64,000 nt of DNA from the IMG/VR virus record IMGVR_UViG_2920580016_000002, positions 26,285-90,284 of that record; one strand, written 5' to 3'. Under the pieces are notes generated by a model. The model did not search any database. It was not told where the DNA came from and saw nothing but the letters and a program-made list of their open reading frames with translations. Positions 2,544 through 60,320 of the stretch are shown one piece after another. The stretch comes from a virus. Taxonomy: Duplodnaviria > Caudoviricetes. Positions within the stretch are counted from its first letter, which is position 1. Every line of letters starts with the position of its first letter. The position numbers and the translations under genes are program-made.

Positions 2544-2617
2544 GTCCGGTCCTCTTCCATTGCTGACGATGAAACGTACAAGCAATAGGTTATGGGGAGG
2601 AACCGGACTTTTTATAA
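2544..2617 (-). promoter_or_regulatory. TTATAAA motif plus hairpin sequestering the SD up to the ATG
   Basis: GTCCGGT(T)CCTC pairs GAGGACCGGAC; inner ATTGCT/AGCAAT; motif at 2611-2617. Confidence 0.7.
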
Positions 2618-2618
2618 T

Positions 2619-3125
2619 TCAGCCGAGACGCCAGCTCGGGAGAAACTCGGCCAGCCGGTGAGAGGTGTACTGACTGGTCGAGAACTTGTCTTCCTTCTTG
2701 CGCATTTCCACGGGGCCGAGAACTTCCGTCTTCCCGTTATTCACGAGGTGCTCTTCCGGTGCTCCCTTCGGAGCCCACTTCTTCCCCTGTGCCTGGTGTT
2801 CGAGCGACGTCGCCATATTGAAGTCGCTCGGCCAGTCGTAATCGTCAGGCGAGATCCGGATACCGGCATGAACACCAGTCGGCCCAGGCCGCGAGTTGAT
2901 CTTCAGCTTGACGCGGTCGAGCAGCCGGTCACCACGCCTGGACGGCACGTTGCCCAGATAGCCGTCCGGGTACTGGGCCTCCGGCGTACGCGGATCGTCA
3001 CCACTCCGGCGCGCGTCCAGGACGTCCCGCCAGTTGACGGGCAGGCTCCCGCCTCCGCCTGTGGCCAGAGCCTCACTCTGGCCCTGCGGGACGTACCAGG
3101 AGTTAGCGGAGTACTGGCGGGCCAT
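2619..3125 (-). CDS. Hypothetical low-complexity protein, possible virion component
   Basis: Coupled ORF in SpoVS-led unit. Confidence 0.8.
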   Translation of the reverse strand: MARQYSANSWYVPQGQSEALATGGGGSLPVNWRDVLDARRSGDDPRTPEAQYPDGYLGNVPSRRGDRLLDRVKLKINSRPGPTGVHAGIRISPDDYDWPSDFNMATSLEHQAQGKKWAPKGAPEEHLVNNGKTEVLGPVEMRKKEDKFSTSQYTSHRLAEFLPSWRLG

Positions 3126-3400
3126 CAGATCCAGATCGATCGCTGCTCGGTCTGCTGCGGCTGTTCAGGCTGTCCGCCGTTGCCGCCCAGGCTGCTGACG
3201 CCGCTGACGATGTTGCTGGTAGCCGAATTCGCGAACTCGCCGACGCGAGAAGCGGTTCCGGCCGACGCGCCCATGCGGGTAGCGCCGCTGGCAGCCGTAC
3301 GCGCGACTGCGCCACCGGCAGCACTGGCAACACCGCCAGCCTCACCAGCCAGCATGGGCAGCACACGAGAGGCGATTGCTGCGATTGCGGGAAGCGGCAT
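3125..3400 (-). CDS. Ala/Gly-rich small protein
   Basis: TAATG/TGATG coupling. Confidence 0.75.
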   Translation of the reverse strand: MPLPAIAAIASRVLPMLAGEAGGVASAAGGAVARTAASGATRMGASAGTASRVGEFANSATSNIVSGVSSLGGNGGQPEQPQQTEQRSIWI

Positions 3401-3723
3401 TACATCCCCTGCCCGTACTGGCGCTTCGCCCAGAAGTCGCGGTTGCCGACGGCCGACCGGACGATCCGGGTGTTACGCAGGTTTGCCGACTCGGCCGGGT
3501 CGTTGCCGACGACCATCTGAGCACGCGGAGCGTAGGTCGCGCCGTGACGCTCGTGGGTCTGACGCCGGACGCCCTCACTCAGCGCGGCCTCGATCATGCC
3601 GCCCTTGGCATTACCGGACTTCCGAACGGGCTTGGTGTACGAGGACGGAGCGCCGGAGACGTTGCGGACGTTGGCCGCCTCCGTACCCATGGTCGGGAAC
3701 TTGGTCGTGGTCTTGTCACCCAC
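3400..3723 (-). CDS. Small basic hypothetical protein
   Basis: SD GGAGG upstream of GTG 3723. Confidence 0.75.
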   Translation of the reverse strand: MGDKTTTKFPTMGTEAANVRNVSGAPSSYTKPVRKSGNAKGGMIEAALSEGVRRQTHERHGATYAPRAQMVVGNDPAESANLRNTRIVRSAVGNRDFWAKRQYGQGM

Positions 3724-3740
3724 GATTTCCTCCAAAACGG

Positions 3741-3959
3741 TTATTGGAACCAGAGCAGCTTTTGATACGTGGACTCTGATACGCCGTTTCTAGAGGGAAG
3801 CACTTGGCCCGGCAGGAGCCTGTTTCTCTCCGATTCCCCGAATCCCAGAGTGCTGGGCTGGATCTGCTCCAGCACCGAAGTAGGCCGGTAGCCACCCTGA
3901 TAAGGGCGCGTGCCAGACGACATGGCCGAAGATGCGAAGGCTTCGGTTCTGTTCTCCAC
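3741..3959 (-). CDS. Small hypothetical protein
   Basis: SD AAGGAG upstream of GTG 3959. Confidence 0.65.
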   Translation of the reverse strand: MENRTEAFASSAMSSGTRPYQGGYRPTSVLEQIQPSTLGFGESERNRLLPGQVLPSRNGVSESTYQKLLWFQ

Positions 3960-3995
3960 TGCGCTCCTTAGCAACGGGTCTCTATCAGCCTACGG

Positions 3996-4289
3996 TCAAT
4001 CGACGAGAATCTTGTAAACCAGCGCACTGACCTTGCCGTCCGCCATTTCTACCGTCGTGAAGCCGATCCTCGCGGCCAGCGTGATGCCGCGCGAGCCGAC
4101 GTACGACTGAGCGATGGCGATACCCTTCGAGGTCTGATTCACCGCACCCGCCCCAATGGCTCGAAGGCTGACCTGCTTGCCGTTGTAGATGGCGTGGGCG
4201 ATGGCGCTCGCAAGCTTCGCAGCGTCGCTGCTGGCAGACACGCGGAGCAGCACCGACTTGTCGTCATTCTCTTCAATCTCGGAAACCAT
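3996..4289 (-). CDS. spoVS: Stage V sporulation protein S (SpoVS) family protein
   Basis: LRVSASS...LASAIA...LRAIGAGAVNQ..KGIAIA matches the SpoVS signature. Confidence 0.88.
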   Translation of the reverse strand: MVSEIEENDDKSVLLRVSASSDAAKLASAIAHAIYNGKQVSLRAIGAGAVNQTSKGIAIAQSYVGSRGITLAARIGFTTVEMADGKVSALVYKILVD

Positions 4290-4295
4290 GTGTTT

Positions 4296-4363
4296 CTCCT
4301 TTTCGGGTTTCCCAATCTGAGCCGTCTGTTTCAGATTAGGGAAAAGGAGCGCAAGGTTTATAA
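4296..4363 (-). promoter_or_regulatory. TTATAAA motif plus SD-sequestering hairpin of spoVS
   Basis: CTCCTTTTC/GAAAAGGAG 9-bp perfect; inner CCTAATCTGA/TCAGATTGGG; motif 4357-4363. Confidence 0.75.
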
Positions 4364-4371
4364 CGAGAAAA

Positions 4372-4400
4372 GCCCCCGCCCGCTCAAGCGGGTCGGGGGC
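4372..4400 (-). terminator. Intrinsic terminator after RuvC-like gene
   Basis: GC stem followed by TTTTCT on minus strand. Confidence 0.75.
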
Positions 4401-4466
4401 CTCTCCCAGGGATCACCAACACACACAGAAAGGAAAGTGCATGACTCCAGTCCGATCTGTGTCCTA

Positions 4467-5015
4467 TTATGCCACACGTTCTGTGTGTAGCACTACCTCC
4501 TTGATTGCCCGAATTTCGTGGAGGCGGGCGTCAGAGCCGTATCCCTCGGTGAGATACTTAGCCATTCTGGCGAGAGTGTAGGAGTCGGCCTCGTTGTCGT
4601 TCTTGCACTCGATTCCCCACCTTTCCTTCACGCCGTCGATCACCTCCTGTTTGCTGGCGTTCCCCTTTCCGGAAGCAAAGAGTTTGACCTTGGTCGGAGC
4701 GATGATCGTGGGGTAGCAGGCTGGCTCGGGAAGGTGCCAGCGCAGTACCCGCTTTACCGCGTAGGCGAGAGATCCGGCCTCTTCCCGCCGGTTCTGGGAG
4801 TCGCGCGAGAATCCCTCCATCGCCACGTGAACCGGATACTCCGGCAGCAGACAGATCTGCTCCCCCAACCACCGTTCAACGTGCATGAGCCGGTCCACGC
4901 CCTTGCCGTACTTGGTCGCGGTGAATTTCACCACGGAGATATCGGCGTAGCCGTCGTACAGTCGCGTCAGGCCGAAGCCACCAAAGGACTGGTCGATCCC
5001 CAAAAAGAGGCTCAC
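4467..5015 (-). CDS. RuvC-like Holliday junction resolvase
   Basis: LGIDQS, VAMEG, K.FASGKGNA.K, NEADS. Confidence 0.85.
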   Translation of the reverse strand: MSLFLGIDQSFGGFGLTRLYDGYADISVVKFTATKYGKGVDRLMHVERWLGEQICLLPEYPVHVAMEGFSRDSQNRREEAGSLAYAVKRVLRWHLPEPACYPTIIAPTKVKLFASGKGNASKQEVIDGVKERWGIECKNDNEADSYTLARMAKYLTEGYGSDARLHEIRAIKEVVLHTERVA

Positions 5016-5617
5016 CAGGTCTCCACCAGCTCGGCCAGCTCACGCACCTTGAGCGGCATGTCGGACAGGTCAGTGGCCGAGAGGTCGAGCAGGTGGTCTT
5101 CCGTCCCTGGCGAGAAGTACTCGCTAACGTGATCGTTGACGGGTCCTACGCCATCGCGATGAACGCGAACCACCTTGAACTGACCGCGAAGCATGTGGAC
5201 ACGATCGCTCAGGGCCTTTGCCTCGTGGAGGAAGCGCACGTCGGAGATCACCACCCGCCCCGAGTTCGGGAGCTGCTCAAGTACCTGGCCAACCCAGACA
5301 TACGGGTTGATCAGGCTCTTGACGGCCTCCCCGGTGACCTGGAGCAAACGACGGACCTCCGGGAACTTGCGCTTGGCGTCGTCCCATCCGAGATCCTCTA
5401 CAAGATCGCTCACACGGCGGCAGGACCAGTCGAGCGGCACTCCACGGGTGTCCTCGAAGCCGGGAGCATCAATGATGGGGTCGATCTCCAGCAACAGCTC
5501 TTTGAGCCGGTCGGCGAAGGCAAACTTCCTGTAGCCGTGCTCACGGACCAGAAGGTCGGCTACCGTGTCCTTCCCCGCGCCCGCGTATCCGCTCAGGCCG
5601 ATAATCCGGAGACTCAC
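5012..5617 (-). CDS. Deoxynucleoside monophosphate kinase
   Basis: IIGLSGYAGAGKDT P-loop, FADRLK, RRLLQ.TG, SDVRF. Confidence 0.9.
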   Translation of the reverse strand: MSLRIIGLSGYAGAGKDTVADLLVREHGYRKFAFADRLKELLLEIDPIIDAPGFEDTRGVPLDWSCRRVSDLVEDLGWDDAKRKFPEVRRLLQVTGEAVKSLINPYVWVGQVLEQLPNSGRVVISDVRFLHEAKALSDRVHMLRGQFKVVRVHRDGVGPVNDHVSEYFSPGTEDHLLDLSATDLSDMPLKVRELAELVETW

Positions 5618-5937
5618 TTCGGCACCTCGTCATCAGGAATGCGCTGAATGCCGAAGTAACCGCTGCGCTTGACGACTCGCCACCACCCGACAACTACGCC
5701 CTTCCCGAGATAGATGTCCGGAAGCATCTTGTCGAAGTCGCTCCAGAACATCGGGAATTTGTGGCCGTTCCGGTCTTCCCAGAGAATCGAGAACGACGAC
5801 GTCCGCCGGTCATATCCGGCGTACATCAGAGTCGCCAGGAAAGGCGTGACAGTGCGGCGAGTGATTCCCTGTATCCAGGACGTATCACGCACCATGTTGC
5901 CCTTCGAGTCGAAAGGCACGTCTTCGAGAATCATCAT
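5614..5937 (-). CDS. Hypothetical protein
   Basis: Coupled ORF. Confidence 0.75.
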   Translation of the reverse strand: MMILEDVPFDSKGNMVRDTSWIQGITRRTVTPFLATLMYAGYDRRTSSFSILWEDRNGHKFPMFWSDFDKMLPDIYLGKGVVVGWWRVVKRSGYFGIQRIPDDEVPK

Positions 5938-7565: not shown

Positions 7566-7592
7566 AGGGATTCCTTTTAGAGTTCGAGTGAG

Positions 7593-7616
7593 AGGCCGCG
7601 CCGGGCGGCGCGGCCT
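7593..7616. terminator. 10-bp GC hairpin, possible terminator
   Basis: AGGCCGCGCC/GGCGCGGCCT, no U tract. Confidence 0.45.
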
Positions 7617-7626
7617 GCGGGGGTGG

Positions 7627-7950: not shown

Positions 7951-7961
7951 TTCAGTTCTCC

Positions 7962-8651: not shown

Positions 8652-8663
8652 ATTGTGCTCCGG

Positions 8664-13686: not shown

Positions 13687-13734
13687 ACGCTATTGGGTCC
13701 GCTCGCCCCGGTTCCACTAACCTAGTAACTGGTT
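13687..13734 (-). promoter_or_regulatory. AACCAGTTACTAGGTT box, 26-nt spacer, TAGCGT -10 upstream of recA
   Basis: Box 13719-13734; same box and spacing at 62485. Confidence 0.55.
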
Positions 13735-13743
13735 AAACGAGGA

Positions 13744-13771
13744 AATCCCCGCACCAACTGGCACGGGGATT
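13744..13771 (-). terminator. Terminator after RNR gene
   Basis: AATCCCCG/CGGGGATT followed by TCCTCGTTT. Confidence 0.65.
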
Positions 13772-13788
13772 CTCTGAGAAATGGCTAT

Positions 13789-18756: not shown

Positions 18757-18824
18757 AGGCCCCCACGACCTACCGTCCGGCTGGGGGGTTACCGGGCGGA
18801 AAAGGGTTTGGGTCGTGGGGGCCT
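18757..18824. other. Intergenic 14-bp perfect inverted repeat with nested 8-bp stem
   Basis: AGGCCCCCACGACC 18757-18770 / GGTCGTGGGGGCCT 18811-18824. Confidence 0.7.
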
Positions 18825-20836: not shown

Positions 20837-20897
20837 GGGGGTCGTCCTCGTAGGGCTCGTCGGCAGAAACTATTAGAAATCTACCCCGATATTGCCC

Positions 20898-20948
20898 CAG
20901 TTACTTAACCCCCACCGGTAACGATCCGGACATCGAGGTTAGTAACTG
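20898..20948. promoter_or_regulatory. Inverted pair of CAGTTACT(T)AACC boxes
   Basis: CAGTTACTTAACC 20898-20910 and GGTTAGTAACTG 20937-20948. Confidence 0.55.
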
Positions 20949-27233: not shown

Positions 27234-27269
27234 AGCGGGGGTCCCTTTCCTTGATCGGGGACCCCCGCT
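27234..27269. terminator. 12-bp perfect stem, terminator-like
   Basis: AGCGGGGGTCCC/GGGACCCCCGCT. Confidence 0.7.
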
Positions 27270-37586: not shown

Positions 37587-37816
37587 CAGGACGCCCCGTA
37601 CTGACCCCAGCCGATAGCCTCTCCCGGTTTGGGAGACGCATCCTGGCCAGGAGCGGACTCCGCTGGACGGTACAGGAGCACGAGCGTCTCCAGCTCGCGA
37701 ATCCGCGCGTGCGCGGTCCGCAGCCGAGCTTCGGTCACCACGGCGCGATCTTCGGCCGCGATGCGCGCCTGACGCTGAGCCTCCGCGTAGTCGGCCATAT
37801 TCAGGGCCTCGTCCAC
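37586..37816 (-). CDS. Small coiled-coil hypothetical protein
   Basis: GTG 37816 (or ATG 37798); TGATG coupling to gp25. Confidence 0.6.
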   Translation of the reverse strand: MDEALNMADYAEAQRQARIAAEDRAVVTEARLRTAHARIRELETLVLLYRPAESAPGQDASPKPGEAIGWGQYGAS

Positions 37817-37821: not shown

Positions 37822-37878
37822 CACCCGCTTTACAACTGGAAATCCGATTCGTACGTTTTCCAGTGTATTTGGGTGTTA
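37822..37878 (-). promoter_or_regulatory. TAACA motif plus hairpin covering GGGTG SD
   Basis: CACCC/GGGTG and ACTGGAAA/TTTCCAGT. Confidence 0.5.
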
Positions 37879-43700: not shown

Positions 43701-43961
43701 GCCGCCTGATGCCTGCTGCTGGCCAGGTGCCGCCTTGGCGGTGGGCAGATAGGAGCCTTGCCGGGAAGGCAGATACGACTGTTGGGCTAGGGGAACGGTG
43801 TTGTAGCTGCTCGTACCTGCGGAGAGACTGAAGCCGCTGCCGGTGCGCGACAACAGAGACAGGACCTTCTCAAAGGTCCGCTGGACCTCGATCAGGGTCT
43901 TGGTGTTGTCCCGCAGGTTCTTCGCGAGGTCGTTGCCCTCCAGCAGGTACGTCTCAGCCAT
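40728..43961 (-). CDS. Tape measure protein with NlpC/P60 and lytic transglycosylase domains
   Basis: GLPYSWGGG..GFDCSSLV..GH; L..LW.RESGWN..A.NP.S.AYGIPQALP. Confidence 0.9.
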   Translation of the reverse strand: MAETYLLEGNDLAKNLRDNTKTLIEVQRTFEKVLSLLSRTGSGFSLSAGTSSYNTVPLAQQSYLPSRQGSYLPTAKAAPGQQQASGGYILGNVMPQGFTPPTYSTGYVNGNAQTAGGGGGSGQSNGGGGGGGGGTPPPSGGYNNGGHSSGGSGGGGGLAATGGGGYNNGGVPPGGSGSMVPGNPFSSIPPTQRPTAQEVKLPSKLSGLLSFGWDFAAAYGDSKATKMQEMHAYARRAARQMPATSYGGDSVSQADAIRQQIFGQDATSSYSFWAYNHQDAQNANWLMGSLVGTRDFNSSPSAKQEWQDFTSLAAANPYASATSTANLEAFMRSPQFQMRSLRMGIGDTYEGGGKYGGTIDNLYGYLDAVYGPWGGEKVGMKGFMKSMRPGQLAAASFDNYTQGMDEEMKANVRAQLDAIVTVSEHGMGQEDYKKALADLTLDDAVAGNSEKISAAQEKLKKAGLADDTINTLKRREAVTNAKDANTNEPFMKGMKDATEHLTLFNKAFNNLFKSAFGQWLVRISGYVSTVNPTVQSGLNIGGSLLDSLPGGSNVKSLLGSILPPAGPATEASSSSSPDPTPGKGPKAEAKKESKSSPNVASGVIQAALSQVGLPYSWGGGNIKGPTRGTQQGRNTVGFDCSSLVQYAYWQGARIKIPRDTWSQMNDPKGRRVSAKEAGPGDLIYTSGGGHVRMMISRNAFVHAPRTGKKIQVVRSNPFAGAVMIKSWLKGPRSGVSLSDIPKKGDVREGQPQGEEPGPRPGQVEGSGPSSGKKEPVGDGSTSVGGTGSPSTAVANQLGSVEEVDAIKAFFAANTTGSSDIEQAQNELAIKEAREDPATATEAKDPQTKQGNNVKVPSVPKGSGTAESNKKIGKQMAAEMGWTGKQWKALEALWQRESGWNHKADNPTSDAYGIPQALPGSKMASAGKDWATNPATQIEWGLGYIKQRYKTPLGAWSFWNSKKKINGKDVGHWYRDGAWEIPEDEHQATLHKGEMVIPRNPAEKIRDALLKEATAPNALAERVAGGGGGGGLTFNFGPGSIQLHVGAGANAASARQTAAEFAAELERINRAKRVSKGR

Positions 43962-44118
43962 TGGCGTTTCTCTGCCTCTCCAGACGCCACTTGGCGAGCG
44001 CCACGTAATACCGGCGCTCGCGCACGGTCAGAGCGCGTGCGTCACCGACACTCCACCCGTAGGTGAGGACAAGGTCAGAGTCGGTGTCCACCACGCGCTG
44101 CCAATCAATTCCAGCGAA
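43954..44118 (-). CDS. Tail assembly chaperone C-terminal extension (DUF6760/GpE'-like), probably reached by frameshift
   Basis: YGWS.....L...ERRYY motif; no clear SD; +1 frame to upstream ORF. Confidence 0.65.
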   Translation of the reverse strand, partial: FAGIDWQRVVDTDSDLVLTYGWSVGDARALTVRERRYYVALAKWRLERQRNANG

Positions 44119-44956
44119 ACAGGGCAGCCAGGGTGACCTGCACCTTCTGCTCGTGGCCGCAGCCCGCGCAGGTGATGGGCACGCCCTCCTCGTCCGGGCC
44201 GACACGGCGGGTACGCAGCTCGTCCAGGATGGCGGCGCGGTCGGCCAGGCCCATCTCGCGCATGGCGGACTCGGCGGTTGGGTGACCAGCGACCGGGCGC
44301 ACGTTACCCGTCGGGCCAGTCAGGGAGATGACCGTGCGCGCCAGGAGCAGCGTGTCGGCCTCGGCCACCGTCAGGTCCTTGTCACGGGTGGCCGCGACCA
44401 CCTCGTTTTGGTCCTTGCCCCGGATCATGCGCACCTGCGCAGTGACGCCGCGCCTCAGGGACACCACGAACTCCGTGACTCCGGGCTCCGGGCTCTTAGT
44501 GATGGGGATCTCTTCCAGGCCCACGGTGACGCCGAGCTTCTGCTTGCAGCCCTGGCACGTCAGCTCATAGGTCAGCTTGTCGCCGTAGGTCGCCTTGCGG
44601 ATCCCGAGCAGCAGTATGTCGCGATCACCCACGACGAGCTGGTTGAGGAGGTCCTGCGTCGCGGGCCGGTCGCCGATGAAGGCCGTGCCTCGCTCCAGCA
44701 AGGTACTGACGAACGCCTCCGGCGCGCTGGACAGGGCGGCTCGGGAGATGGCCTCCTCATCCGCGCCGGTCAGCTCCCGCACACGAGCGGTCCGAACTAC
44801 TTGGCCGTCCAGGGTCAGGCCGCAGGCCAGCTCCACGACATCATCAGTGGGCGGCTCAGGCTGCGGCATGGGGTCTTCCAGCGCACGCCGTATCTCGGCT
44901 GCTGCCGTCGGATCTGTGACGGGATTGCGGTAGTGAATACCCGAGTTCTGGTCCAA
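44105..44956 (-). CDS. Tail assembly chaperone (T4 gp26-like, Cys pairs)
   Basis: VRELTG.DEE, DRD.LL..IR.ATYG, C..C twice; between tube and TMP. Confidence 0.85.
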   Translation of the reverse strand: MDQNSGIHYRNPVTDPTAAAEIRRALEDPMPQPEPPTDDVVELACGLTLDGQVVRTARVRELTGADEEAISRAALSSAPEAFVSTLLERGTAFIGDRPATQDLLNQLVVGDRDILLLGIRKATYGDKLTYELTCQGCKQKLGVTVGLEEIPITKSPEPGVTEFVVSLRRGVTAQVRMIRGKDQNEVVAATRDKDLTVAEADTLLLARTVISLTGPTGNVRPVAGHPTAESAMREMGLADRAAILDELRTRRVGPDEEGVPITCAGCGHEQKVQVTLAALFRWN

Positions 44957-45031
44957 GGCGGTAATTCTCCTTCGATATGCGACGGGTTCGTCTTACATAA
45001 CGTTAGGAGAATTACCGCCTCAGATATTAAC
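44956..45031 (-). promoter_or_regulatory. GTTAATA motif plus 16-bp perfect hairpin sequestering SD and first base of TTG
   Basis: AGGCGGTAATTCTCCT (45005-45020) / AGGAGAATTACCGCCT (44956-44971). Confidence 0.85.
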
Positions 45032-45032: not shown

Positions 45033-45629
45033 TCAGCCCGAGCTTGAGAACTCGGCCGCGTTACCGGTCGGCGAGTTCGGGGCCAGACTGAACCCGAATC
45101 CCTCGTGGACCAGCGTCATCTGATTGACGATGATCTGATTGGAACCGGCATCCAGGTCCGAGAACGAAACGGTCGTCGGCCACGCGTTATAGAGCTTGAA
45201 ACGCGCCCGGACATCGCCGTCGCCCTCCATGACCGGGTGAGACAGGACCATGATCTCCACGTCCACCCGGAAATCGTAGCCCTGCGTGGCCGGAGCCGAT
45301 CCAAGACCCGAGTCGCCACCCGAGGAAACGGCCATGACGGTACGCATCCAGCGCATCATGAATCCGCCATCCTCGCCCACGACCAGGCCCTTGCTAAAGG
45401 TGACGGGCTGGAAATCCGTCTGGCCCGGAAGCTTGTGCGGACTGGTCGAATACCCGCCCTCACGGTAAGGGATGACATCGGTGTTGACGGAAAGTCCGGA
45501 GATGGACATGAATCCCGCGTTGACGGGCGTCTCCACACCGGAGGTGCCATTAGCGCCGCCCCGGCTGAATGCCACCTTGAACTTGAAGTTCCGCAGCGGG
45601 TCAGACGTCAGAAGGTGCCCAGTAGGCAT
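45033..45629 (-). CDS. Tail tube protein (T4 gp19/eCIS type)
   Basis: DPLRNFKF, GF..ISGL, YREGG, KLPG, NAWP, L.HEG. Confidence 0.93.
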   Translation of the reverse strand: MPTGHLLTSDPLRNFKFKVAFSRGGANGTSGVETPVNAGFMSISGLSVNTDVIPYREGGYSTSPHKLPGQTDFQPVTFSKGLVVGEDGGFMMRWMRTVMAVSSGGDSGLGSAPATQGYDFRVDVEIMVLSHPVMEGDGDVRARFKLYNAWPTTVSFSDLDAGSNQIIVNQMTLVHEGFGFSLAPNSPTGNAAEFSSSG

Positions 45630-45647: not shown

Positions 45648-47189
45648 TTAGAAGTTTTCCTCGACGCTGGACTGTCCGTCCCACTGGCCGACCTTGATGA
45701 CGATGAATTCGGCGGGATACCTGAGGGCCACCCGCACATCGACATTCACGCGACCCGCGTTGATGGTCTGCGGAGTGTTGTTCGCATCCGAACAGACGAC
45801 GTTGAACGCTTCGCTTTCATTGCGTCCCGCAAGAACGCCCTGGCGGAGCAGATGCAGCAGATAGCGGTCGATCGTCATCTTGATGACCTGCCACAAGTCA
45901 GGTCCGTTCGGCTCGAACACGGCGAACTTCGAGATATCGACGAGCTGCTTCCGCAGCATGATGAGCGTGCGCCGGACAGGCACATACCGGTCGGGGAGTT
46001 CACGCTTCAACGTGCGCGAGCCCATGATGCAGATCCCGTTTCCGGGCACCAGTCGAATGACGTTGATGTGGTGATCCGCGAGGTCGTCCAGCTCGGCCGG
46101 AGTGAACTTGCACTCGGCGGCGAGAACGCCTTCCAGCTTGGTTTCCGTACCGGCCGGAGCCTTGGCCACATGCCGCACGCTGTCATTGCGCGCGAAACGC
46201 CCGAGAATAACGCCGCCCGGAGGCAGGAGCTTGACCGCGCCGTACATATTCGTCGCCGGGTCGCTGCACATCAGCCACGGCCCATAAACCGCCCCGTACG
46301 AGGTTGCGCGGTACGGGTCGGAACCCGTCACCAGGCCCGTGTAACCGGCGGCGATCTGAGAAGACGTCGCACCCTCGGCACCGCGCGGCCCGTCGATGAC
46401 GACAAACACCTTGCCCGTGGACTCGGCCCATTCCAGAACCGGGTTGATGATGCTGTCGCTGATGACGCCCGGAATGTTGAGGTCGATGTTGTCGTCCAGG
46501 TCGCCCAGCGTCTTGGCCGCCGCAACCATGTCGTAGGGGGCAACACCGTCACTACCCGTGCCGAGAAACGCGTCCGTCGCCGGAATGACGTCATTGGTCG
46601 GGTGGTAGACGTACGTCTCGGAAACCTTCAGGTTCGCCAGCCGCACAACGAGCGAGCCCGCCCACGAGGAATTGACGATCGTGATGGCGTAGCGCGAGTC
46701 GTTGGGGTTGGACGACAGGTCCTCGAAACGCTCCACCTCGCGCCCGCTATTGCGGATGATCAGCGTGAAACGCCCAGCCGGAGCACCGGTCGGCACCACG
46801 TGAACCGACAGGGTGTTACCACCCACGCCAGGCGACATCGCGGTGACCTTGATGGCATCCTGGGGACCGCCAGAACCAGCCGGACGCGAGTCCTTGAGCG
46901 TCACCGTGGCGTACGTCGCGTCCGAGCGCGCCGACCTGACGATGTAGCACTGGCCGCCGCCATTCTTGTAGAACATGTAGACGGCGTAGGGAAGGTAACT
47001 GCCCTGCGCGGCGAAGCCACCGAAAAGAGTGACGAACTGCGCCCACGACTTGATCTTCGTCGGCAGCGCCGGACCCTTCTCGGTGATGCCGACAAATGCC
47101 GCGACGGCACGCGCATCACCGTAACCAGCAGCCCCGCGCGGCGACAGATCCTCTTCGATGTATACGCCTGGGGTTAGGTACTCGGCCAC
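45648..47189 (-). CDS. Contractile tail sheath
   Basis: PGVYIEE, FVG.T.KGP, YGPW, PP.G...G, APAG, SRTL, FEPN. Confidence 0.95.
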   Translation of the reverse strand: MAEYLTPGVYIEEDLSPRGAAGYGDARAVAAFVGITEKGPALPTKIKSWAQFVTLFGGFAAQGSYLPYAVYMFYKNGGGQCYIVRSARSDATYATVTLKDSRPAGSGGPQDAIKVTAMSPGVGGNTLSVHVVPTGAPAGRFTLIIRNSGREVERFEDLSSNPNDSRYAITIVNSSWAGSLVVRLANLKVSETYVYHPTNDVIPATDAFLGTGSDGVAPYDMVAAAKTLGDLDDNIDLNIPGVISDSIINPVLEWAESTGKVFVVIDGPRGAEGATSSQIAAGYTGLVTGSDPYRATSYGAVYGPWLMCSDPATNMYGAVKLLPPGGVILGRFARNDSVRHVAKAPAGTETKLEGVLAAECKFTPAELDDLADHHINVIRLVPGNGICIMGSRTLKRELPDRYVPVRRTLIMLRKQLVDISKFAVFEPNGPDLWQVIKMTIDRYLLHLLRQGVLAGRNESEAFNVVCSDANNTPQTINAGRVNVDVRVALRYPAEFIVIKVGQWDGQSSVEENF

Positions 47190-47198: not shown

Positions 47199-47834
47199 CT
47201 AATCCTCGTCGCCTTCGTAAAGAAAGTCGAAATGCTCTGTCTCTTTGTCGTCGCGCAGGGGCCGAAGTGTCCCGGCGACGTGATCGGGATAAGTGAGCCG
47301 TTCGATTTCCCAAGGCGTCATCTCAGAGAAGACGCGGACCAAGTAGTAAGTCTCGAATATCCGCTTGTTGTCGGAGTCCAGACGGGACGAGAACGTCGGC
47401 CCTGCCTGCACATCCATGGACACTTCCACCCCGATTTCCGGGATGAGCAGCGTGCCCGCCCGATGCGGGATCCTCGCCTCTTTGCCCAGCTCAACCGTCA
47501 GAAGCGTCTGATGCTCCTGCATCCTGGTGTAGACGCTGATCTGATAGTCGATGTCGAAAGGGATCGGAAACCCCGCGTAGTAACCCCAGCGCGCCCCAGC
47601 AGGAACCGGATCCTTTCCCTCGGGCGTGTACGGGATTCGCACACGGCCTCGGTGCTCGCGATCCGTTGCCTGATAGACACCTGTCCGAGTTAGTATCAGA
47701 ATCGGGAAAGTCATATCAGCCGCTTCGGGCTCGGGCTGCGAAAACCGCACAGGAACAGGCTCTCCGAGACCAGGCAAACTGATCCCAGAGAGCCGCGCCT
47801 TTATCGCGCGATCCTCACGCAGAACCCACGGCAT
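47199..47834 (-). CDS. Tail terminator/completion protein (Pvc16-like)
   Basis: Upstream of sheath; P.P.DIDYQI..Y.R pattern. Confidence 0.65.
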   Translation of the reverse strand: MPWVLREDRAIKARLSGISLPGLGEPVPVRFSQPEPEAADMTFPILILTRTGVYQATDREHRGRVRIPYTPEGKDPVPAGARWGYYAGFPIPFDIDYQISVYTRMQEHQTLLTVELGKEARIPHRAGTLLIPEIGVEVSMDVQAGPTFSSRLDSDNKRIFETYYLVRVFSEMTPWEIERLTYPDHVAGTLRPLRDDKETEHFDFLYEGDED

Positions 47835-47882: not shown

Positions 47883-47942
47883 CCGCCCTTACAAGAAACG
47901 ACTACACAATTAGAGTAAGGGCGGAAGCGCAAACGTTTATAA
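47883..47942 (-). promoter_or_regulatory. TTATAAA motif plus 10-bp hairpin
   Basis: TTATAAACGTTTGCGCT resembles TTATAAACCTTGCGCT at 4357; CCGCCCTTAC/GTAAGGGCGG. Confidence 0.6.
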
Positions 47943-49305: not shown

Positions 49306-49336
49306 GCTTCTATTCTCGGCTCTGCCCGATTTCTTT

Positions 49337-49373
49337 TGTTAATGACGAAGGCCCCCGAGAGATTCGGGGGCCT
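49337..49373 (-). terminator. Terminator hairpin followed by ATTAACA motif
   Basis: AGGCCCCCGA/TCGGGGGCCT 49349-49373; motif 49337-49343. Confidence 0.65.
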
Positions 49374-49409
49374 CGCCAACCATCCTCAGGGTAGCGATTC
49401 TGAGGAAGC

Positions 49410-49832: not shown

Positions 49833-50084
49833 TTACGACACCTTCTGGAACATGACGACGAACTCGGGAACAGGGAGGGCGAGGAAGCGAATGCACCCAT
49901 CGATGCACGTGTACTGGAAGAGAACGGAGTCATATTCCGAGTAACCGATGCCGGGAGTACCGGACGGGTAGATGCCGAGGATCTCCACCTCAGTACCGGC
50001 AGGCAGCGCGCCGGGGCCAACGCCCCAGTCGTCAATGAGCCGCCAGGTCTCGCCTACCTCAGGAATGATCGTGGGGTCGCTCAT
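49833..50084 (-). CDS. Hypothetical protein
   Basis: TAATG coupling. Confidence 0.7.
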   Translation of the reverse strand: MSDPTIIPEVGETWRLIDDWGVGPGALPAGTEVEILGIYPSGTPGIGYSEYDSVLFQYTCIDGCIRFLALPVPEFVVMFQKVS

Positions 50085-50458
50085 TAATGCCAGACCAGGC
50101 CCTTCTGCTCCAGAATCAGAGCGACATGACTGGGGACGCGGTAGACGACACCGCGCTTGAAGTCATAGGACGTGCCCGGACCCACGGTCATCTGCTCGAT
50201 ATCGCTGTTCACCCGAATCTTGCGAGATGCCTCGCCGGTAGCGGAGCCGATCTGAATCTCGCCCGCGTCGGCCGCGACGGGCTCGGCAGGCTTGGTGTAA
50301 TCGACCTCGGTCTCCTCATCCGCATTCAGCGGAACAGTGCCGGTGATGGTCGAGAGCTGACCGGCGCGAGCCGCCAGCTCCTCAGCGTGCTTCTCCGCCA
50401 GTTCTTCAGCGATACGCCCAGTGACGTCTTGCGGATTCTTGCGCGGACGTCCAGCCAC
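50084..50458 (-). CDS. Head-associated hypothetical protein
   Basis: SD GGAG before GTG 50458; IRVN.D.E.MT.G, F..G..Y.VP..VA..L..KG.VWH. Confidence 0.8.
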   Translation of the reverse strand: MAGRPRKNPQDVTGRIAEELAEKHAEELAARAGQLSTITGTVPLNADEETEVDYTKPAEPVAADAGEIQIGSATGEASRKIRVNSDIEQMTVGPGTSYDFKRGVVYRVPSHVALILEQKGLVWH

Positions 50459-50461
50459 AGT

Positions 50462-50527
50462 TTCTCCAAAACGTTGACGACGACTAGTCACATCAAGTTT
50501 GGAGAACGTCCCCGAAAAAGTGTTAAT
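50462..50527 (-). promoter_or_regulatory. ATTAACA motif plus SD-sequestering hairpin
   Basis: TTCTCCAAA/TTTGGAGAA plus inner TTGA/TCAA and GAC/GTC. Confidence 0.7.
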
Positions 50528-52464: not shown

Positions 52465-52483
52465 CCGTCTCTCAAACAGGGGC

Positions 52484-53678: not shown

Positions 53679-53693
53679 GAAGAGACGTACTTC

Positions 53694-54449: not shown

Positions 54450-54462
54450 TTAGCTCGAATCC

Positions 54463-56155
54463 TTAGAATTTGTTTTCCGGATTCTGGCGTTCAGGCGTCT
54501 TAGCGCCGTATGCCTGTGTCACGAGTTCGGTCATCAATGCTTCTTCGGCACCTGCCATGACTGCCGGTTGCCCGATAGCCGTGGGAGGCGTGTTGCCCGC
54601 AGTATCCGAATTCGTGGTCCCAGTGAGCGGGGCCGGGGCACCGTCACCCGTAGGTGACATCCCCGTCATTTGGAGAATAGCAGAAGCGATTTGCGCAGTA
54701 ATAAGGTCCAGGGCTCCCTGTTCCTTAGCGTCGCGCACCTGCTCTTCAAACAGCTCTTGCAACTTCTCGTCGGCGAATTCCTCGCCCATATCCTTGAGAG
54801 CGCCGCGCTTGGACTCCAAGCCAAGGCCCATACGGAGCTGGATTTCGTTGAGCTTGATGAGGTTGTCCACCGGCAGCGGCGGAGGCCACTCACAAGCCGT
54901 CTGGTAAACGAGCGGGTCGCGAGGGTCAATGACCAACGGCTGACCGTCCTGGATGATGCCGTCGGTGTCCGGGTCGTACTTCAGAGTTTCAGGCTCGAAG
55001 AGAAACAATGTCCTCAAGATCAGCTCGTTGATACGCCGAAGACCCTGCGTGTACTGCCGCTTTTTTGCGTTGTATCTCTGCATCATCGGGAACATTTGCA
55101 GAGCGAGGGCAACGCCGGAGGTATTGGAGATCGGCTGGGCCTGACCCAAGGAACTCTCTGGGACGCCCATCATCTCATGCATGGCGCGCTTTAGCGTCTC
55201 CATCCATTGGAGAGGCCATTGCAGATCTACGCCGTTTTCGAGGTTGAAGACCTTGGCGTCCGGCGGCAAGCCACCCCAGATCTTCCGCGCGCCCTTCTCC
55301 AGGTTGTTCACGCGAGCGCCAGTGATCACCGTGACAGGTGCCGAGTGGTAATTGATGATGTCACAGATGGCTACGGCAAGCTCGTTGTACTGCTGGTTCA
55401 GGGGGATGATGTCCTCGATGTCCGACAGCCCCCACGGCGATCCCGAGACGGAAACATTGGGGATGTGGACGATCGGGATGACACCCAGAGGGTTCTTCCG
55501 CCGGTTGATGAGCTGGTCATCCACCCACTCTTCTATAAGGTCCTCGGTGATGATCTCCTGGTAGGTGAAGACCTTCCTGGTCCCATCATTCGTGGTGGCC
55601 CAGAATTTGTAGCGAAGGCGGAAGCGCACGAGCCTCTCGCGGTCGTGCGGATGCCATTCTGGGAAGCAATGCGCCGCGTTGAGCGGAAGCACACGCACAC
55701 GACCCGCGTGCCAATTCCGGGCACGATCGACGTACGGCTTCTCGTACGCGATCTTCACGAAGCAGTCACCGCTTACCGAGCCGTTCTCGCCCATCTCGGC
55801 CAGCACGGTCGGCTTGTCGTTGTCCACCTCCCACACGCGGTTCAAAAGCGCGGGAATGATGTGTTCGTACTGCTTGGCAGACGTGAAGTGGACGCCACGG
55901 GAGAACGTGAAGTCGTTTACGAATCGGGTAAGCGCCCGAACGTAATTGAAGGTAAGCTGCGGCTCACCATATTCTCGACGGCTAGCCCAATGCCAGCCGA
56001 GATAGAAGGCCCAGTTCCGCGCATAAGTAGCGGTTGAGACGCGGACCGCTCACCTCCCATTCCTGGTCCGACAGTTCGACAAGACCAAGCGGGGAGATTG
56101 ACACGGTCAGCCCGCTAGCCTGCTGGCTCGGACTGTAAAAATTGAAGCCGCTCAA
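54463..56155 (-). pseudogene. Portal protein (SPP1-like), split by a 4-nt shift at 56024-56029; recoded gene or pseudogene
   Basis: Frame 1: TTG 56155 to TAG 55982 (57 aa); portal body is in the +1 frame from TAT 56025, with no start codon until TTG 55845. Confidence 0.85.
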
Positions 56156-56158
56156 CCT

Positions 56159-56238
56159 GGCATCACCTCCTCACGCAAATAGCCCGAATTGCTCACACAA
56201 TTCAGGCTATTTGAGTTGATGTGAAGAGTTGTAATGCC
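56159..56238 (-). promoter_or_regulatory. 80-nt hairpin sequestering portal SD GAGGAGGTGA
   Basis: GGCATTAC/GTGATGCC, CTCTTCAC/GTGAGGAG, AAATAGCCTGAATTG/CAATTCGGGCTATTT; G-U pairs work only on the coding strand. Confidence 0.8.
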
Positions 56239-56780: not shown

Positions 56781-56809
56781 AGGGACCTCTCTTCTTGAGT
56801 AGGGGGTGA

Positions 56810-57019
56810 TCAGGCGGAGCGGGCGATGGCCGCGTTGCCCCACATCATCGTCTCTTCGAGATGAGTGATCGCCAGAGCCTTCTCCCGGCTTTCCGGGAGA
56901 AGCTCGTTCAGCGACCCGGCCAGATTCCGGCAGAGGCGGCGGATGGTCTCGTGGGCCACCACCGCCTTCTCATCCGGCTTGTGGTAGTTGAAGCGGTTGT
57001 CGAGATCGCCGGGCGTCAT
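56810..57019 (-). CDS. Acb2/Tad1-like hairpin-domain protein (candidate immune-signal sponge)
   Basis: RFNYHKP...L...L.ELLPESREKALAITHLEETMMWGNAAIAR. Confidence 0.8.
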   Translation of the reverse strand: MTPGDLDNRFNYHKPDEKAVVAHETIRRLCRNLAGSLNELLPESREKALAITHLEETMMWGNAAIARSA

Positions 57020-57021
57020 GA

Positions 57022-57432
57022 TCAGTCGTTGACCTGAGCCGGGTTGGTCCGCATGTAGTGGCCACCCGAGCGAGTGACCTGCTCGAACTCGCGCTCGCCG
57101 TGGTTGCCCAGGCCGCCATGCGCGAACTCGCCCAGGTAGGTCGGAGCCTCCACCCACGCGGCGCTGCCGACGTGCGCCCGCTGCTGGAGCGTCTTCTCCG
57201 GCGGCTGGACCCAGGTCGGGGTGACACGGTTCGGGCGGCCGGGAGCCGTCACGTACCCGTTGTTGACGCCGAGCTGGAAATCCGACGGGACATCGGTGTC
57301 GCTGGCGATCCCCTCCTCGAAACGAAGAGGACCACGCCGCGCCTGGTTGGCGGCCATCTTGCGCTCATAAACCGGCGTGATCCGCTCGGGGATGTGCGGG
57401 GCCGGAGAGAGCGGCGAAACGTTCTCTGCCAT
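57022..57432 (-). CDS. Hypothetical protein, likely virion-associated
   Basis: SD AAGGAG; RGPLRFEEG.A.DTDVP, RAHVGSAAWVEAP. Confidence 0.8.
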   Translation of the reverse strand: MAENVSPLSPAPHIPERITPVYERKMAANQARRGPLRFEEGIASDTDVPSDFQLGVNNGYVTAPGRPNRVTPTWVQPPEKTLQQRAHVGSAAWVEAPTYLGEFAHGGLGNHGEREFEQVTRSGGHYMRTNPAQVND

Positions 57433-57434
57433 TG

Positions 57435-57501
57435 ATGAAACTCCTTGAAAGCCGTAGCGCTACATTTCCAGGCTAGGATCAGAGAAGTTTCATTTGTTAA
57501 T
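57435..57501 (-). promoter_or_regulatory. ATTAACA motif plus SD-sequestering hairpin
   Basis: ATGAAACTTCT/AGGAGTTTCAT (11 bp, one G-U); motif includes terminase TAA. Confidence 0.7.
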
Positions 57502-59065
57502 AGAAGGGGTTGTTCGCCACTTCCATCACGGGCATCTGCGTCTCCTGCGTCAAAACACAGGCGAGCGCCAAACTATCGGCGTAGTCGTCGAAAGCGCCAG
57601 TTTCATTCGGAGCTTCCGCCATCATGTTCGGACCCTTGAATTCGACCTGGAGATCCTCCATCTGCTGCACGAAGCGCCGGTAAGTCCGCAGCCGCCGAGT
57701 CTTCGCATGCGCAGGCCAGCCGATCATCCGGCGTTCAAGGAGCTGGTTGAGATGCTTCCACCGCTTGCTCTGGTCACCGGCCATGGACCCCAGCTCCACG
57801 ATATTCGCGCGAGGCATCAGGACCTTCAGGCGCGAGGCCACCGCGTCACCTACGCCGCCGACGTCGATGCCGATGGCGAAGATGTTGTAGTTCGAGAGAA
57901 ATTCGGTGATGCGGTAGTACTGGCTCTCCCAGTCCATGCCTTCCAGATCGAGCCAGTTCAAGATCCGATGCTCATACATCCCGAATTCGTCGGGGCGATC
58001 CCAGTCCACCCAGACCACCGTCACAATGGTCGAGTCCTGCTTTCTGGCGGGGTCGATTCCGACGACCACGGGCGTCTGATGCCAGTACTTGACGGCCTCC
58101 ATGCTCTTGTCGCCCAGAGAGTCCAGGACTTCGCGGGTCGTGAACATTCCCTTTTCGAGAAGCCACATCAGCCTGAAGGACAGCTTGAACTCGTCGGAGT
58201 CCTCGCCGACCCGCAAGATCTCCTTCTTGACGTATTTCCCGTAGCGAGGGTTCGCCTTCGCCGCCGCTTTCCAGTCGGCCTCGAAGTGATTGCACCTTGC
58301 GCCTCGACGGCTAGCCAGTCTCTTGTTGAGCTGGATCGCCTTGTAGAACACGCCCTTCTCATAGCTCGGAGTGCCGGTGAAGACCATGGTCGCGTTGGTG
58401 CTCGCGCCCATGGGGGCGATTGACTTGTTGACCATCCGGTCATCCGCGCCTTGGCACTCGTCAATCAGGATCAGGTGGTAAGTCCGGCCTTCAATGATGG
58501 CTCGCGGGTGACAGGTCTGCCGACGCACCAGGGAACCCGAGCGAAGCGTTACTGTCCGGCCCTTTCCCTTGAGCGCGTCATTGATTTCGGGCTCGGCCAT
58601 GATTTCCACCGCGCGCTCGCTTGTGAGACGACTCACAATACGCGAGAAAAGGGTGTCCGCCTGGTCATCGACCGGCGCGAAAGCACCCACCCAGAGCCCC
58701 TCCTTGAAGTGCCCGAGAAGATCTGGGTAGATGCGCGCGAGGACCGGCAGCATAATCATCAGAGCGGCGACAACATTGGCGACAGTTTCAGATTTTCCGG
58801 ACTGCCTGGAAAATAGGGCAGTGATCGTCGCGCCATCCCCGATAATCACAGACTCGATCAGCCGCCGAGCGAAGGGACGCTGATAGTGATACAGCGGATG
58901 GCCACTCAGAGTATCGACCACGACCATCAGCTTGTCCACGAGCATGGCCACAAACTCGGCCGTCAGCTCGTCCAGCTCGACTTCCGTATCAAGACGAGCC
59001 TGCCGCTCGGTCTCGGTCTCGTCCGTCAGCTCTTCATCAAGATATTCGTCGTCTACCAGTTCCAC
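57497..59065 (-). CDS. terL: Terminase large subunit
   Basis: SRQSGKSE Walker A, LIDECQ, TGTP, GIDPAR..DST, DDYADS. Confidence 0.95.
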   Translation of the reverse strand: MELVDDEYLDEELTDETETERQARLDTEVELDELTAEFVAMLVDKLMVVVDTLSGHPLYHYQRPFARRLIESVIIGDGATITALFSRQSGKSETVANVVAALMIMLPVLARIYPDLLGHFKEGLWVGAFAPVDDQADTLFSRIVSRLTSERAVEIMAEPEINDALKGKGRTVTLRSGSLVRRQTCHPRAIIEGRTYHLILIDECQGADDRMVNKSIAPMGASTNATMVFTGTPSYEKGVFYKAIQLNKRLASRRGARCNHFEADWKAAAKANPRYGKYVKKEILRVGEDSDEFKLSFRLMWLLEKGMFTTREVLDSLGDKSMEAVKYWHQTPVVVGIDPARKQDSTIVTVVWVDWDRPDEFGMYEHRILNWLDLEGMDWESQYYRITEFLSNYNIFAIGIDVGGVGDAVASRLKVLMPRANIVELGSMAGDQSKRWKHLNQLLERRMIGWPAHAKTRRLRTYRRFVQQMEDLQVEFKGPNMMAEAPNETGAFDDYADSLALACVLTQETQMPVMEVANNPFY

Positions 59066-59070
59066 TATTC

Positions 59071-59100
59071 ATACCCTCGAAACCCCCTTTTCGAGCGTAC
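59071..59100 (-). promoter_or_regulatory. Hairpin overlapping terminase SD
   Basis: CTCGAAA/TTTCGAG extended by GTAC/GTAT. Confidence 0.5.
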
Positions 59101-59109
59101 AAATAGAAA

Positions 59110-59133
59110 AAGCCCGGATATGAATCCGGGCTT
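59110..59133 (-). terminator. Intrinsic terminator upstream of terL
   Basis: AAGCCCGGAT/ATCCGGGCTT then TTTCT. Confidence 0.8.
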
Positions 59134-59134
59134 C

Positions 59135-59413
59135 TTATGAGCCGTACGGTATCTGGCCCGGTGGTCGTCTCGGGATCCCAAGCTGGCGCAGCACGCGGGT
59201 CACCTCCGAGCGCTCCATGCCGAACATCTCCCCGAGCTTCGTTGTGGGGAGCTGGCGCACGTCATACAGATAACCAATGATCCGATTGCGCGCCTCCTGG
59301 CGGCTGATCGTGCCGCGCAGGTACTTGCAGGCCGCGCTACAGGAGACCGCCACTCGCTTGTCGGCGTAGGCGACGAAGGAGCCGCAGCCCTTGCAGTACA
59401 GGATCTCGCTCAC
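59135..59413 (-). CDS. Zn-finger plus HTH regulator
   Basis: CKGC...CSAAC; TTKLGEMFGMERSEVTRVL. Confidence 0.75.
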   Translation of the reverse strand: MSEILYCKGCGSFVAYADKRVAVSCSAACKYLRGTISRQEARNRIIGYLYDVRQLPTTKLGEMFGMERSEVTRVLRQLGIPRRPPGQIPYGS

Positions 59414-59652
59414 CGCAGATGGCGCTTCTTGATGAGCTGGAGGGCGGTGATCACGTCGTCGATCGCTTCCAGGGGGACGATCGCGCCCGCGCCGTAGGGC
59501 TCGCGGCCGGGAGCCGGGTTGGTGACGTAGTCGATGATCTCAGCCACACGCTCGCCGGTCGCAAGGATCTGGGTGTCGCAGACGTGGATGGCCCGTGAGC
59601 CGAAGGAGATCTGCGCTATGACTGAGCGCTCCACAACCGGCTCGTCCGACAC
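59410..59652 (-). CDS. Small protein, possibly PC4-like ssDNA binder
   Basis: SD GGAGG; G.G..VPLE.IDDVI.AL (family inferred). Confidence 0.6.
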   Translation of the reverse strand: MSDEPVVERSVIAQISFGSRAIHVCDTQILATGERVAEIIDYVTNPAPGREPYGAGAIVPLEAIDDVITALQLIKKRHLR

Positions 59653-59845
59653 CGCTCCTCCAATGTGTGTGTAACTGGCCCAACGCTACAACAATCGAAA
59701 TCTGTCGGAGCGCTGCGGTACCGTCGTCCTAGGTCGCTTGAGGGCGGCCTGTGGCAGCCTCCGGGCTGAGCATTGAAACGCACTGACGCCGCACGCCCTG
59801 CGCTGCGTGTGGCGCTTCCTGTCATGCCGACGAAGGAGAGGTGCG

Positions 59846-60241
59846 ATGCCCGAGACCATGCCCGCCGCCGAAATTTGGGGCCGGATGGCGGCGCTGCTGG
59901 CCAGGAACCTGCCGACAGGCTTCAACGCGGACAAGATGCTGGACCGATGGCTCCCCAATCCCGCAGCCCAGTTCGCCTACCTCAACAGGTACGTCAAGTG
60001 GGCCAGAGGTAGGAAGCGCGTCACACGGCAAGCCATAGGCAAGGACAACAGGACCGACCTCATCTGGTCGCTTCACGCGGGGTCGCCCACGACGGCCGAC
60101 GAGAAGACTTACCTAGAGCTGGCCGAGCTGCTCGACAAGGACAAAGATGCCCCGCCAGCTCGTCCGATGACGATGCTCGAAGAGGAGCAGTTCTGGCGCG
60201 GCGTCTACGCGGTCAAGTTCGAGGAGGCGGAGGGCTCTTAG
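59846..60241 (+). CDS. Hypothetical protein
   Basis: SD AAGGAG/GAGGTG before ATG 59846. Confidence 0.75.
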   Translation: MPETMPAAEIWGRMAALLARNLPTGFNADKMLDRWLPNPAAQFAYLNRYVKWARGRKRVTRQAIGKDNRTDLIWSLHAGSPTTADEKTYLELAELLDKDKDAPPARPMTMLEEEQFWRGVYAVKFEEAEGS

Positions 60242-60254
60242 CCCCAACCCGATC

Positions 60255-60320
60255 TTTACAAACAAAACCGCCATTCCACCTAATCTGGGAAAGAGTTCCC
60301 TGTACCGGAATGGCGGTTTT
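60255..60320 (+). promoter_or_regulatory. TTTACAAA motif plus 14-bp perfect hairpin burying ATG 60310
   Basis: AAAACCGCCATTCC 60264-60277 / GGAATGGCGGTTTT 60307-60320. Confidence 0.75.

Follow-up and report, generated by a model that had tools for sequence, protein, structure and literature searches.

Phage structural proteins are co-transcribed and needed in very different amounts, and how their ratios are set is known for few phages. The question is raised by a 64,000-nucleotide (nt) stretch of viral DNA (IMG/VR record IMGVR_UViG_2920580016_000002, positions 26,285 to 90,284; hereafter, ‘the window’ means this whole stretch), in which an earlier reading made from the letters alone (the sequence-only reading) described about nine late genes whose Shine–Dalgarno sequence (SD) or start codon is locked in a hairpin. 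Are these stem-loops distinct RNA elements, are they maintained by selection, and what would they do to translation? The window lies at G000:C1:681234-745233 in a 12.4-Mb source genome of 63% GC. It is a contractile-tailed prophage of roughly 60 kb, with nearly all genes on the minus strand, reading leftward from packaging through head, tail and replication genes to spoVS and lysis. A stem-loop with the SD or start codon in its 3′ arm was found at all nine named sites and at a tenth (3729-3796), and we lean towards reading these elements as cis-acting hairpins that occlude the ribosome-binding site (RBS) and throttle or gate initiation on selected cistrons.

Stem-loops over ten translation starts

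The ten elements share a common form, in which the 5′ arm is an anti-SD sequence that forms an outer helix with the SD or start codon; this helix encloses a large loop, usually with an inner hairpin that gives the structure two tiers. The 3′ arm ends 0-6 nt ahead of the start codon, or covers it, at all ten sites, and the most stable local fold of the mRNA strand has the SD, the start codon or both base-paired, weakly so at the gene starting at 37816. Each of the nine named segments is more stable than 200 dinucleotide shuffles (z -3.4 to -9.6), bearing out the earlier claim that stems lock the RBS or start of every gene it named. With energies of -16 to -44 kcal/mol and long perfect runs, the stems do not resemble RNA thermometers of the ROSE or fourU type. 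No Rfam family matched the hairpins, and raw minimum free energy (MFE) in a 70-nt sliding window did not separate them from GC-rich coding sequence.

Three of the elements precede packaging and tail genes (all on the minus strand; genes without a name are designated by their start coordinate). The gene at 44105-44956, 3′ of the tube gene, matches PF12322 T4_baseplate (E 7e-10) and the PHROG 150 baseplate hub (hereafter, ‘hub’), so that its earlier label, tail chaperone, is not borne out. Its hairpin (44952-45024) has 16 bp of perfect pairing, or 20 bp with G–U pairs, and encloses AGGAG and a TTG start that is ATG in the relative L012; the MFE is -43 to -44 kcal/mol (z -8.6 to -9.6). Ahead of the portal gene, an 80-nt hairpin (56159-56238) buries GAGGAGG in 33 bp arranged as three stacked helices, just before the start at TTG 56155 (MFE -47.5 kcal/mol, z -7.0; sense -44.0 versus antisense -31.7). 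The terL hairpin (59065-59106) has 17 bp and an MFE of -19.5 kcal/mol, against -12.2 for the antisense (z -7.8). Stem lengths given earlier for hub (16 bp) and the 57432 gene (11 bp) recur in our folds, and the 33 bp of the portal compare with about 31 bp stated.

The remaining minus-strand elements belong mostly to small genes. The hairpin of the 51-amino-acid gene 2388-2543 (2544-2608) is two-tiered, with a 7+4-bp outer stem (CCUC/GAGG) around an inner hairpin, and its stem ends at the ATG (MFE -27.1 kcal/mol, z -4.8). Gene 3400-3723 carries the tenth element (3729-3796), absent from the earlier list, in which a CCUC...GGAGG outer stem again surrounds an inner hairpin; its SD-pairing z is 3.25, and the MFE of its 89-nt context alone is not significant (z -0.66). 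At spoVS (4297-4348), UCCUUUUC pairs with GAAAAGGA and there is also a 10-bp inner stem (MFE -21.3 kcal/mol, z -5.1); the fold is more stable in the sense than in the antisense strand. Gene 50084-50458 has a 9-bp stem (50462-50506; MFE -16.5 kcal/mol, z -3.4), and gene 57022-57432 an 11-bp stem that begins 3 nt after the terL stop codon (57435-57493; MFE -21.4 kcal/mol, z -3.7). We grade the hairpin of the gene starting at GTG 37816 (37822-37875) as weak because only the five outer base pairs, CACCC/GGGUG, cover GGGUG; it also has an inner stem, and its z is -4.6. Comparison with the relative G061 set the starts of the portal, 37816 and 60310 genes, and supports GTG 37816 as the true start.

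The only plus-strand member differs in kind. At 60264-60320, a 14-bp perfect stem covers ATG 60310, as had been claimed, and is followed by UUUUU; it looks like a terminator-like hairpin overlapping the start of a membrane-protein-like open reading frame, and this is how it is best read. A U tail is absent from the other nine elements. All resemble intrinsic terminators in being GC-rich stems in spacers, and the 60310 element has the full signature, whereas the other nine have large structured loops. True terminator-like hairpins adjoin two of them directly on the 5′ side. One, with a U-rich tail, lies just upstream of the spoVS unit (4364-4408, minus strand; MFE -38.5 kcal/mol, z -6.5) and shows one double and two one-sided pair-keeping changes in G061. 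The other, with a U5 tail, is a separate hairpin (59107-59136, minus strand) immediately 5′ of the terL element. Further terminator-like hairpins with short loops and U-rich tails are found at 13743-13772 and 49343-49378. The RBS hairpins are thus distinct from the terminator-type hairpins of the same phage.

How closed these starts are was expressed as an opening energy, the cost of opening positions -15 to +4 within a 140-nt context. The hub start, at 28.9 kcal/mol, exceeds all of the approximately 1570 control sites and stands at the 100th percentile of host starts, followed by 60310 (99.7), the portal (99.5), 2543 (20.9 kcal/mol, 99.4), 3723 (18.9 kcal/mol, 97.9), 50458 (95.1) and terL (86). 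With starts as corrected, six of the ten sites reach at least the 95th host percentile. A second measure, the SD-pairing score, comes from our own alignment, in which the SD window is matched to the preceding 80 nt; z is at least 3.2 at 7 of 85 window starts and at 7 of 420 host starts (odds ratio 5.3, Fisher p 0.0038).

Conservation of the stems in relatives

The main relative, G061 (IMG/VR record IMGVR_UViG_2935054407_000001), is collinear with the window over 218-59611 at approximately 80% nucleotide identity. Across the nine listed hairpins, 34 of 402 stem positions (8.5%) differ between the two, compared with 27 of 125 loop positions (22%; Fisher p 1.7e-4); in the tube gene and terL, 35-39% of third codon positions differ. 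Among the stem pairs that changed, 12 are kept by a one-sided change and 2 by a double change, and 13 are broken. The power to see covariation is low, with only two or three relatives usable: megablast of the phage database returned no match to the window, the tube protein found none among genome contigs, a metagenome scan gave no relative beyond L012, a genus-wide search of 110 genomes gave two distant relatives only, and among the spoVS relatives searched G061 alone was close enough. Taken together, the comparisons show that the hairpins are under purifying, partly compensatory selection.

Compensatory changes, which the sequence-only reading had proposed to look for, are present at hub, the portal and 2543 within this small set of relatives. 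The hub hairpin of L012 (74% tube identity) has three double changes (A-U to G-C, U-A to C-G and A-U to G-C) around a loop unrelated to that of the window, and 98% of cells in the stem alignment are paired, a share that falls to 43-54% once the partner arm is shifted by 1-3 columns. In G061, the 2543 hairpin has one double change (G-C to A-U) and two changes that retain a G-U pair. The portal hairpin has two compensatory changes by manual reading of the alignment, one in the inner stem (A-U to G-C) and one in the anti-SD helix (U-A to C-G), where the automated count gives one. The spoVS stems are identical, with three differing bases in the apical loop and a heavily diverged upstream flank; the 57432 stem is longer in G061; and the 50458 hairpin is partly eroded, with four pairs broken and CUCC/GGAG retained.

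The direction of change also identifies the molecule that folds. In the 5′ arm of the 60310 stem, G061 carries A to G and C to U, and pairing is kept as G-U on the plus (coding) strand only; the changes in the terL hairpin likewise retain pairs only as G-U of the mRNA strand. The elements are RNA, not DNA, structures. Within the window itself, sense RNA is more stable than antisense at six of nine sites and about equal at the other three, so the earlier claim that G-U pairs favour the mRNA strand mostly holds.

More distant terL genes (60-71% protein identity) keep the order of a terminator followed by an SD-burying stem, with different sequences: ACCCUCGAAUU/GAUUCGGGGGU in L029, UCCUAGUGU/ACACUAGGA in L033, and a 12-bp stem in L036, with per-lineage shuffle p of 0.003-0.26. 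The relative L067 likewise has an SD-burying stem of another sequence. Since the terL core helix in A2 is sequence-conserved with zero double changes, the support for this element comes from these non-alignable relatives. Among portal relatives, the L098 group has its own hairpin burying the SD and start.

The same comparison turned up a frame break in the portal gene. In the window the gene is split over two frames (55982-56155, minus strand), the N-terminus running from TTG 56155 to GPRLNRY and the body beginning ARNWAFYLGWHW, and only a +1 shift, made after TAC and ahead of the rare codon TTA, connects the halves. The portal of G061 (103780-104417) is in frame at that point and has 4 extra nt approximately 25 nt downstream (TAT-TGAC), because of which its frames can be joined only by a +1 shift at a TGA stop that follows a Tyr codon. 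Portal relatives further removed, more than 40 of them, have a single frame. That the +1 site differs between the two relatives speaks against a simple pseudogene.

At the other end, collinearity with G061 breaks at 59611-60248 and synteny resumes at 60248, a position immediately 5′ of an AT-rich stretch and of the 60264-60320 hairpin. The plus-strand block that starts there is found at 3085-5353 of G061, about 100 kb away and in the opposite orientation, which places the 60310 element at the edge of a module located elsewhere in that genome.

Possible roles in translation

Hairpins that bury an RBS are an already familiar type of control in phages, and those described here introduce no new principle. 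In the cis-acting reading, which we hold to be slightly more likely than not, they would keep de novo ribosome loading low on terL, the portal, the hub-like gene, spoVS and the small genes. Such throttling may fix low initiation rates for proteins required in few copies, and may prevent translation of these cistrons from upstream read-through transcripts. SD-burying stem-loops are lacking on the tube and sheath genes, whose products are abundant. Conserved SD-burying stems on terminase, portal and a hub-like gene offer a testable set of cis elements in a little-studied, GC-rich clade of contractile-tailed phages.

At some sites, a ribosome terminating on the upstream gene could melt the anti-SD and hand on translation. 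This would resemble the MS2 coat–replicase and Escherichia coli atpHA couplings, in which the downstream RBS is closed until an upstream ribosome unwinds it. If the anti-SD has to lie no more than about 13 nt from the stop codon of the upstream gene, the geometry would fit 37816, 57432 and, in part, the portal, where the 5′ arm begins 0, 3 and 0 nt after the stop, respectively. Unlike in MS2 and atpHA, the elements at hub, 2543, terL, spoVS and 50458 either lack an adjoining upstream cistron or hold the anti-SD too far away for an upstream ribosome; the arm-to-stop distance is 8 nt at hub and 10 nt at 2543, which leaves the anti-SD beyond the terminating ribosome. Relief by ribosomes finishing the upstream gene, as suggested earlier, is therefore geometrically possible at the first group of sites and not at the second, where expression would be leaky or set by the positions at which late transcripts start.

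The replication genes had been described as stop–start coupled instead. About half of them are, and the late module is coupled to the same extent. Among genes with spacers of at least 30 nt, 7 of 17 in the late and lysis blocks have starts that cost 14.5 kcal/mol or more to open, versus 1 of 12 in the replication block, a difference that is suggestive only (one-sided hypergeometric p about 0.06).

Several results weigh against selective throttling or narrow its reach. The mean opening energy of the 85 window starts (10.3 kcal/mol) shows no shift against any of three control sets, namely host starts (n=628, 10.4 kcal/mol), internal mock sites (n=328, 10.6 kcal/mol) and internal SD-like sites (n=617, 11.7 kcal/mol). 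The riboregulation proposed earlier as genome-wide is ruled out by this absence, and the enrichment is confined to the tail of the distribution. The starts of 57432, spoVS and 37816 (host percentiles 59, 43 and 25) do not exceed an average host start in opening energy; six or seven sites stand out as truly unusual, and three are striking by eye yet energetically ordinary for a GC-rich genome. The 14 kept versus 13 broken pairs in G061 are near the neutral expectation for mostly one-sided transitions, so that slow stem change, not this ratio, is the main signal of conservation. Phylogenetic reach is also short. The terL stem is absent from L034 and from all low-GC terL relatives examined, low-GC portal relatives have no hairpin, and the hub hairpin is limited to three close relatives, being absent from G007 and from 29 non-redundant hub homologues (33-43% identity), which marks it as young. 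Finally, a 20-bp perfect stem would nearly abolish initiation, so hub would need some relief.

One source of such relief could be transcription. The AT-rich motif TTA[AT][ACT]A[ATC] has eight matches on the coding strand, and seven of them are at gene boundaries (binomial p 2.6e-7 against the 8.6% non-coding share of the window); the AT motif to which the sequence-only reading referred is thus real. The boundary copies are TTATAAA at 2611-2617 (minus strand) and those at 4357-4363, 45024-45030, 47936-47942, 49336-49342, 50520-50526 and 57494-57500, six being in spacers and the last overlapping the terL stop codon. Five copies lie 0-14 nt before an RBS hairpin (2543, spoVS, hub, 50458 and 57432), the copy at 49342 follows a terminator, and the motif is retained in G061 and L012. 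We regard it as a candidate late promoter. At 47890-47942 (minus strand), TTATAAA and 13 nt are followed by a 10-bp hairpin, CCGCCCUUAC/GUAAGGGCGG, that precedes only an 11-codon mini-open reading frame and not the ATG at 47834; this fits a 5′-leader hairpin independent of an RBS.

In T4, the late genes e, soc, 49 and I-TevI combine an occluded RBS with a late promoter by the 5′ arm (PMC3014915). By analogy, the hairpins of the window could form a temporal gate that silences early and read-through transcripts, with late transcripts starting at the AT motif, immediately 5′ of the 5′ arm or within it, and lacking so much of that arm that the SD is freed. We judge this possible, if unlikely. As in T4, the SD or start is held in a local helix, a promoter-like AT-rich motif adjoins the 5′ arm and the genes have late or dangerous functions; the motif and its placement resemble the T4 late promoter TATAAATA (PMC3014915). 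Judging from the coordinates, a start 5-8 nt past the motif would, at best, remove or clip the anti-SD at 57432 and spoVS, and terminators precede the spoVS and 49305 motifs, as separate late units would predict. Set against this, the anti-SD lies 10-14 nt past the motif at hub, 50458 and probably 2543, and would be retained by the transcript; the motif has no copy at terL, portal, 37816 or 3723; and no late sigma-like factor was identified in the window. Unlike in T4, packaging and tail genes are targeted, and the motif is mostly upstream of the whole anti-SD, as the sequence-only reading had noted for several sites, so late transcripts would often keep the lock.

The stem-loops might instead act mainly in mRNA processing or stability, as protective 5′ hairpins and/or RNase III sites, with inclusion of the SD secondary or relieved by cleavage. 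Cleavage relieves the RBS in the lambda N and T7 0.3 leaders, and the long interrupted duplexes between operon cistrons here recall the T7 intercistronic RNase III hairpins and the lambda N leader. The near-perfect duplexes of hub (20 bp) and portal (33 bp) are adequate for RNase III, which takes approximately 20 bp or more; the two-tier shape with internal loops, the placement right behind a promoter-like motif, the 47942 motif with its hairpin ahead of no gene start and the position of the hub hairpin directly after the abundant tube gene all agree with such a role. Replication spacers also carry similar conserved hairpins, equally strong and leaving the SD free, at 18757-18824 (minus strand), 27234-27269 and 7593-7616. 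Their position is what speaks against processing as the main role at the RBS sites: they end 25-115 nt before the start, whereas at ten of ten RBS sites the 3′ arm is 0-6 nt from the start or over it, with a 5′ arm whose sequence complements the SD itself. In addition, terL relatives change the stem sequence and still cover the SD, and, unlike in T7 and lambda N, most stems are shorter than two helical turns and each pairs the SD specifically. We consider it doubtful that processing or stability is the main function.

These spacer hairpins also answer in part whether early untranslated regions fold as well as late ones, which the sequence-only reading had named as grounds for abandoning its claim: the replication spacers fold equally strongly and leave the SD uncovered. 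The one at 18757-18824, upstream of the DNA polymerase gene, is a 14-bp perfect hairpin with an inner stem and no U tail, kept in G061 despite loop indels and with one compensatory change. Opening the start of the DNA polymerase gene costs very little (3.6 kcal/mol, percentile 2).

It is very improbable that a phage trans-acting factor, such as a Com-like Zn protein, SpoVS or a small RNA, opens all the hairpins late as one regulon. Several stems are too stable for spontaneous opening (28.9 kcal/mol at hub), and Mu Com offers a precedent, in that a stable hairpin likewise occludes the translation start of the late gene mom. Com acts through a defined binding site beside one hairpin, whereas the window has ten dissimilar hairpins with no shared site in arms or loops. 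The arms and loops have no convincing common sequence (one 9-mer recurs in the spoVS and 60310 loops, within chance), the sites differ in architecture and depth of conservation, the absence of an Rfam match offers no link, and the protein encoded at 59135 has only sub-threshold matches to UPF0175 and MarR. No Com-like Zn-finger protein was identified among the window proteins, although no dedicated search for Com homologues was made. The trans-acting opener that the sequence-only reading offered as one of two means of relief thus finds no pointer in these data. In a more specific version, which we consider equally far-fetched, the ten hairpins would form one late regulon under a phage-encoded opener such as the Alba-like SpoVS, possibly together with the portal frame break; if true, it would extend a Com-like switch to packaging, tail and lysis genes.

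That the stems are chance pairings in GC-rich DNA, selected by eye, is hardly credible for the set as a whole: in this genome the average start already needs about 10 kcal/mol for opening, chance alone should place 9-bp stems with G-U pairs near many starts, and 37816, spoVS and 57432 are unremarkable by opening energy, but the shuffle z-scores, covariation, slower change of stems than of loops and enrichment over host starts refute it for the six or seven strongest sites and leave it conceivable for 37816.

Neighbouring genes and a second motif

A codon log-odds caller trained on the same genome called 86 genes in the window, and assignments were made with Pfam and PHROGs. From the packaging end, on the minus strand, these are terL (57497-59065), an Acb2/Tad1-like protein (56810-57019), an SPP1-type portal (54463-56155), sheath (45648-47189), tube (45033-45629), the hub-like gene described above and tape measure (40728-43961). 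A replication and nucleotide module (about 27100-4470) encodes an initiator, DnaC, DnaB, primase, helicase, family A polymerase, RNR, UvsX, exonuclease, ThyX, RNase H, dNMP kinase and RuvC. It is followed by SpoVS (Pfam PF04232; 3996-4289, minus strand) and an endolysin (1420-2238).

The 69-amino-acid protein at 56810-57019, whose gene separates terL from the portal, has a match to the Acb2/Tad1 hairpin domain (PF24729, E 8e-21) and is likely to be an anti-CBASS or anti-Thoeris sponge. A second motif of approximately 16 nt, similar to CCAGTTACTNGGTTAG, is present in three spacers, at about 13717-13734 (minus strand), 20894-20913 (minus strand) and 62485-62506 (plus strand), and may be an operator or the promoter of another gene class.

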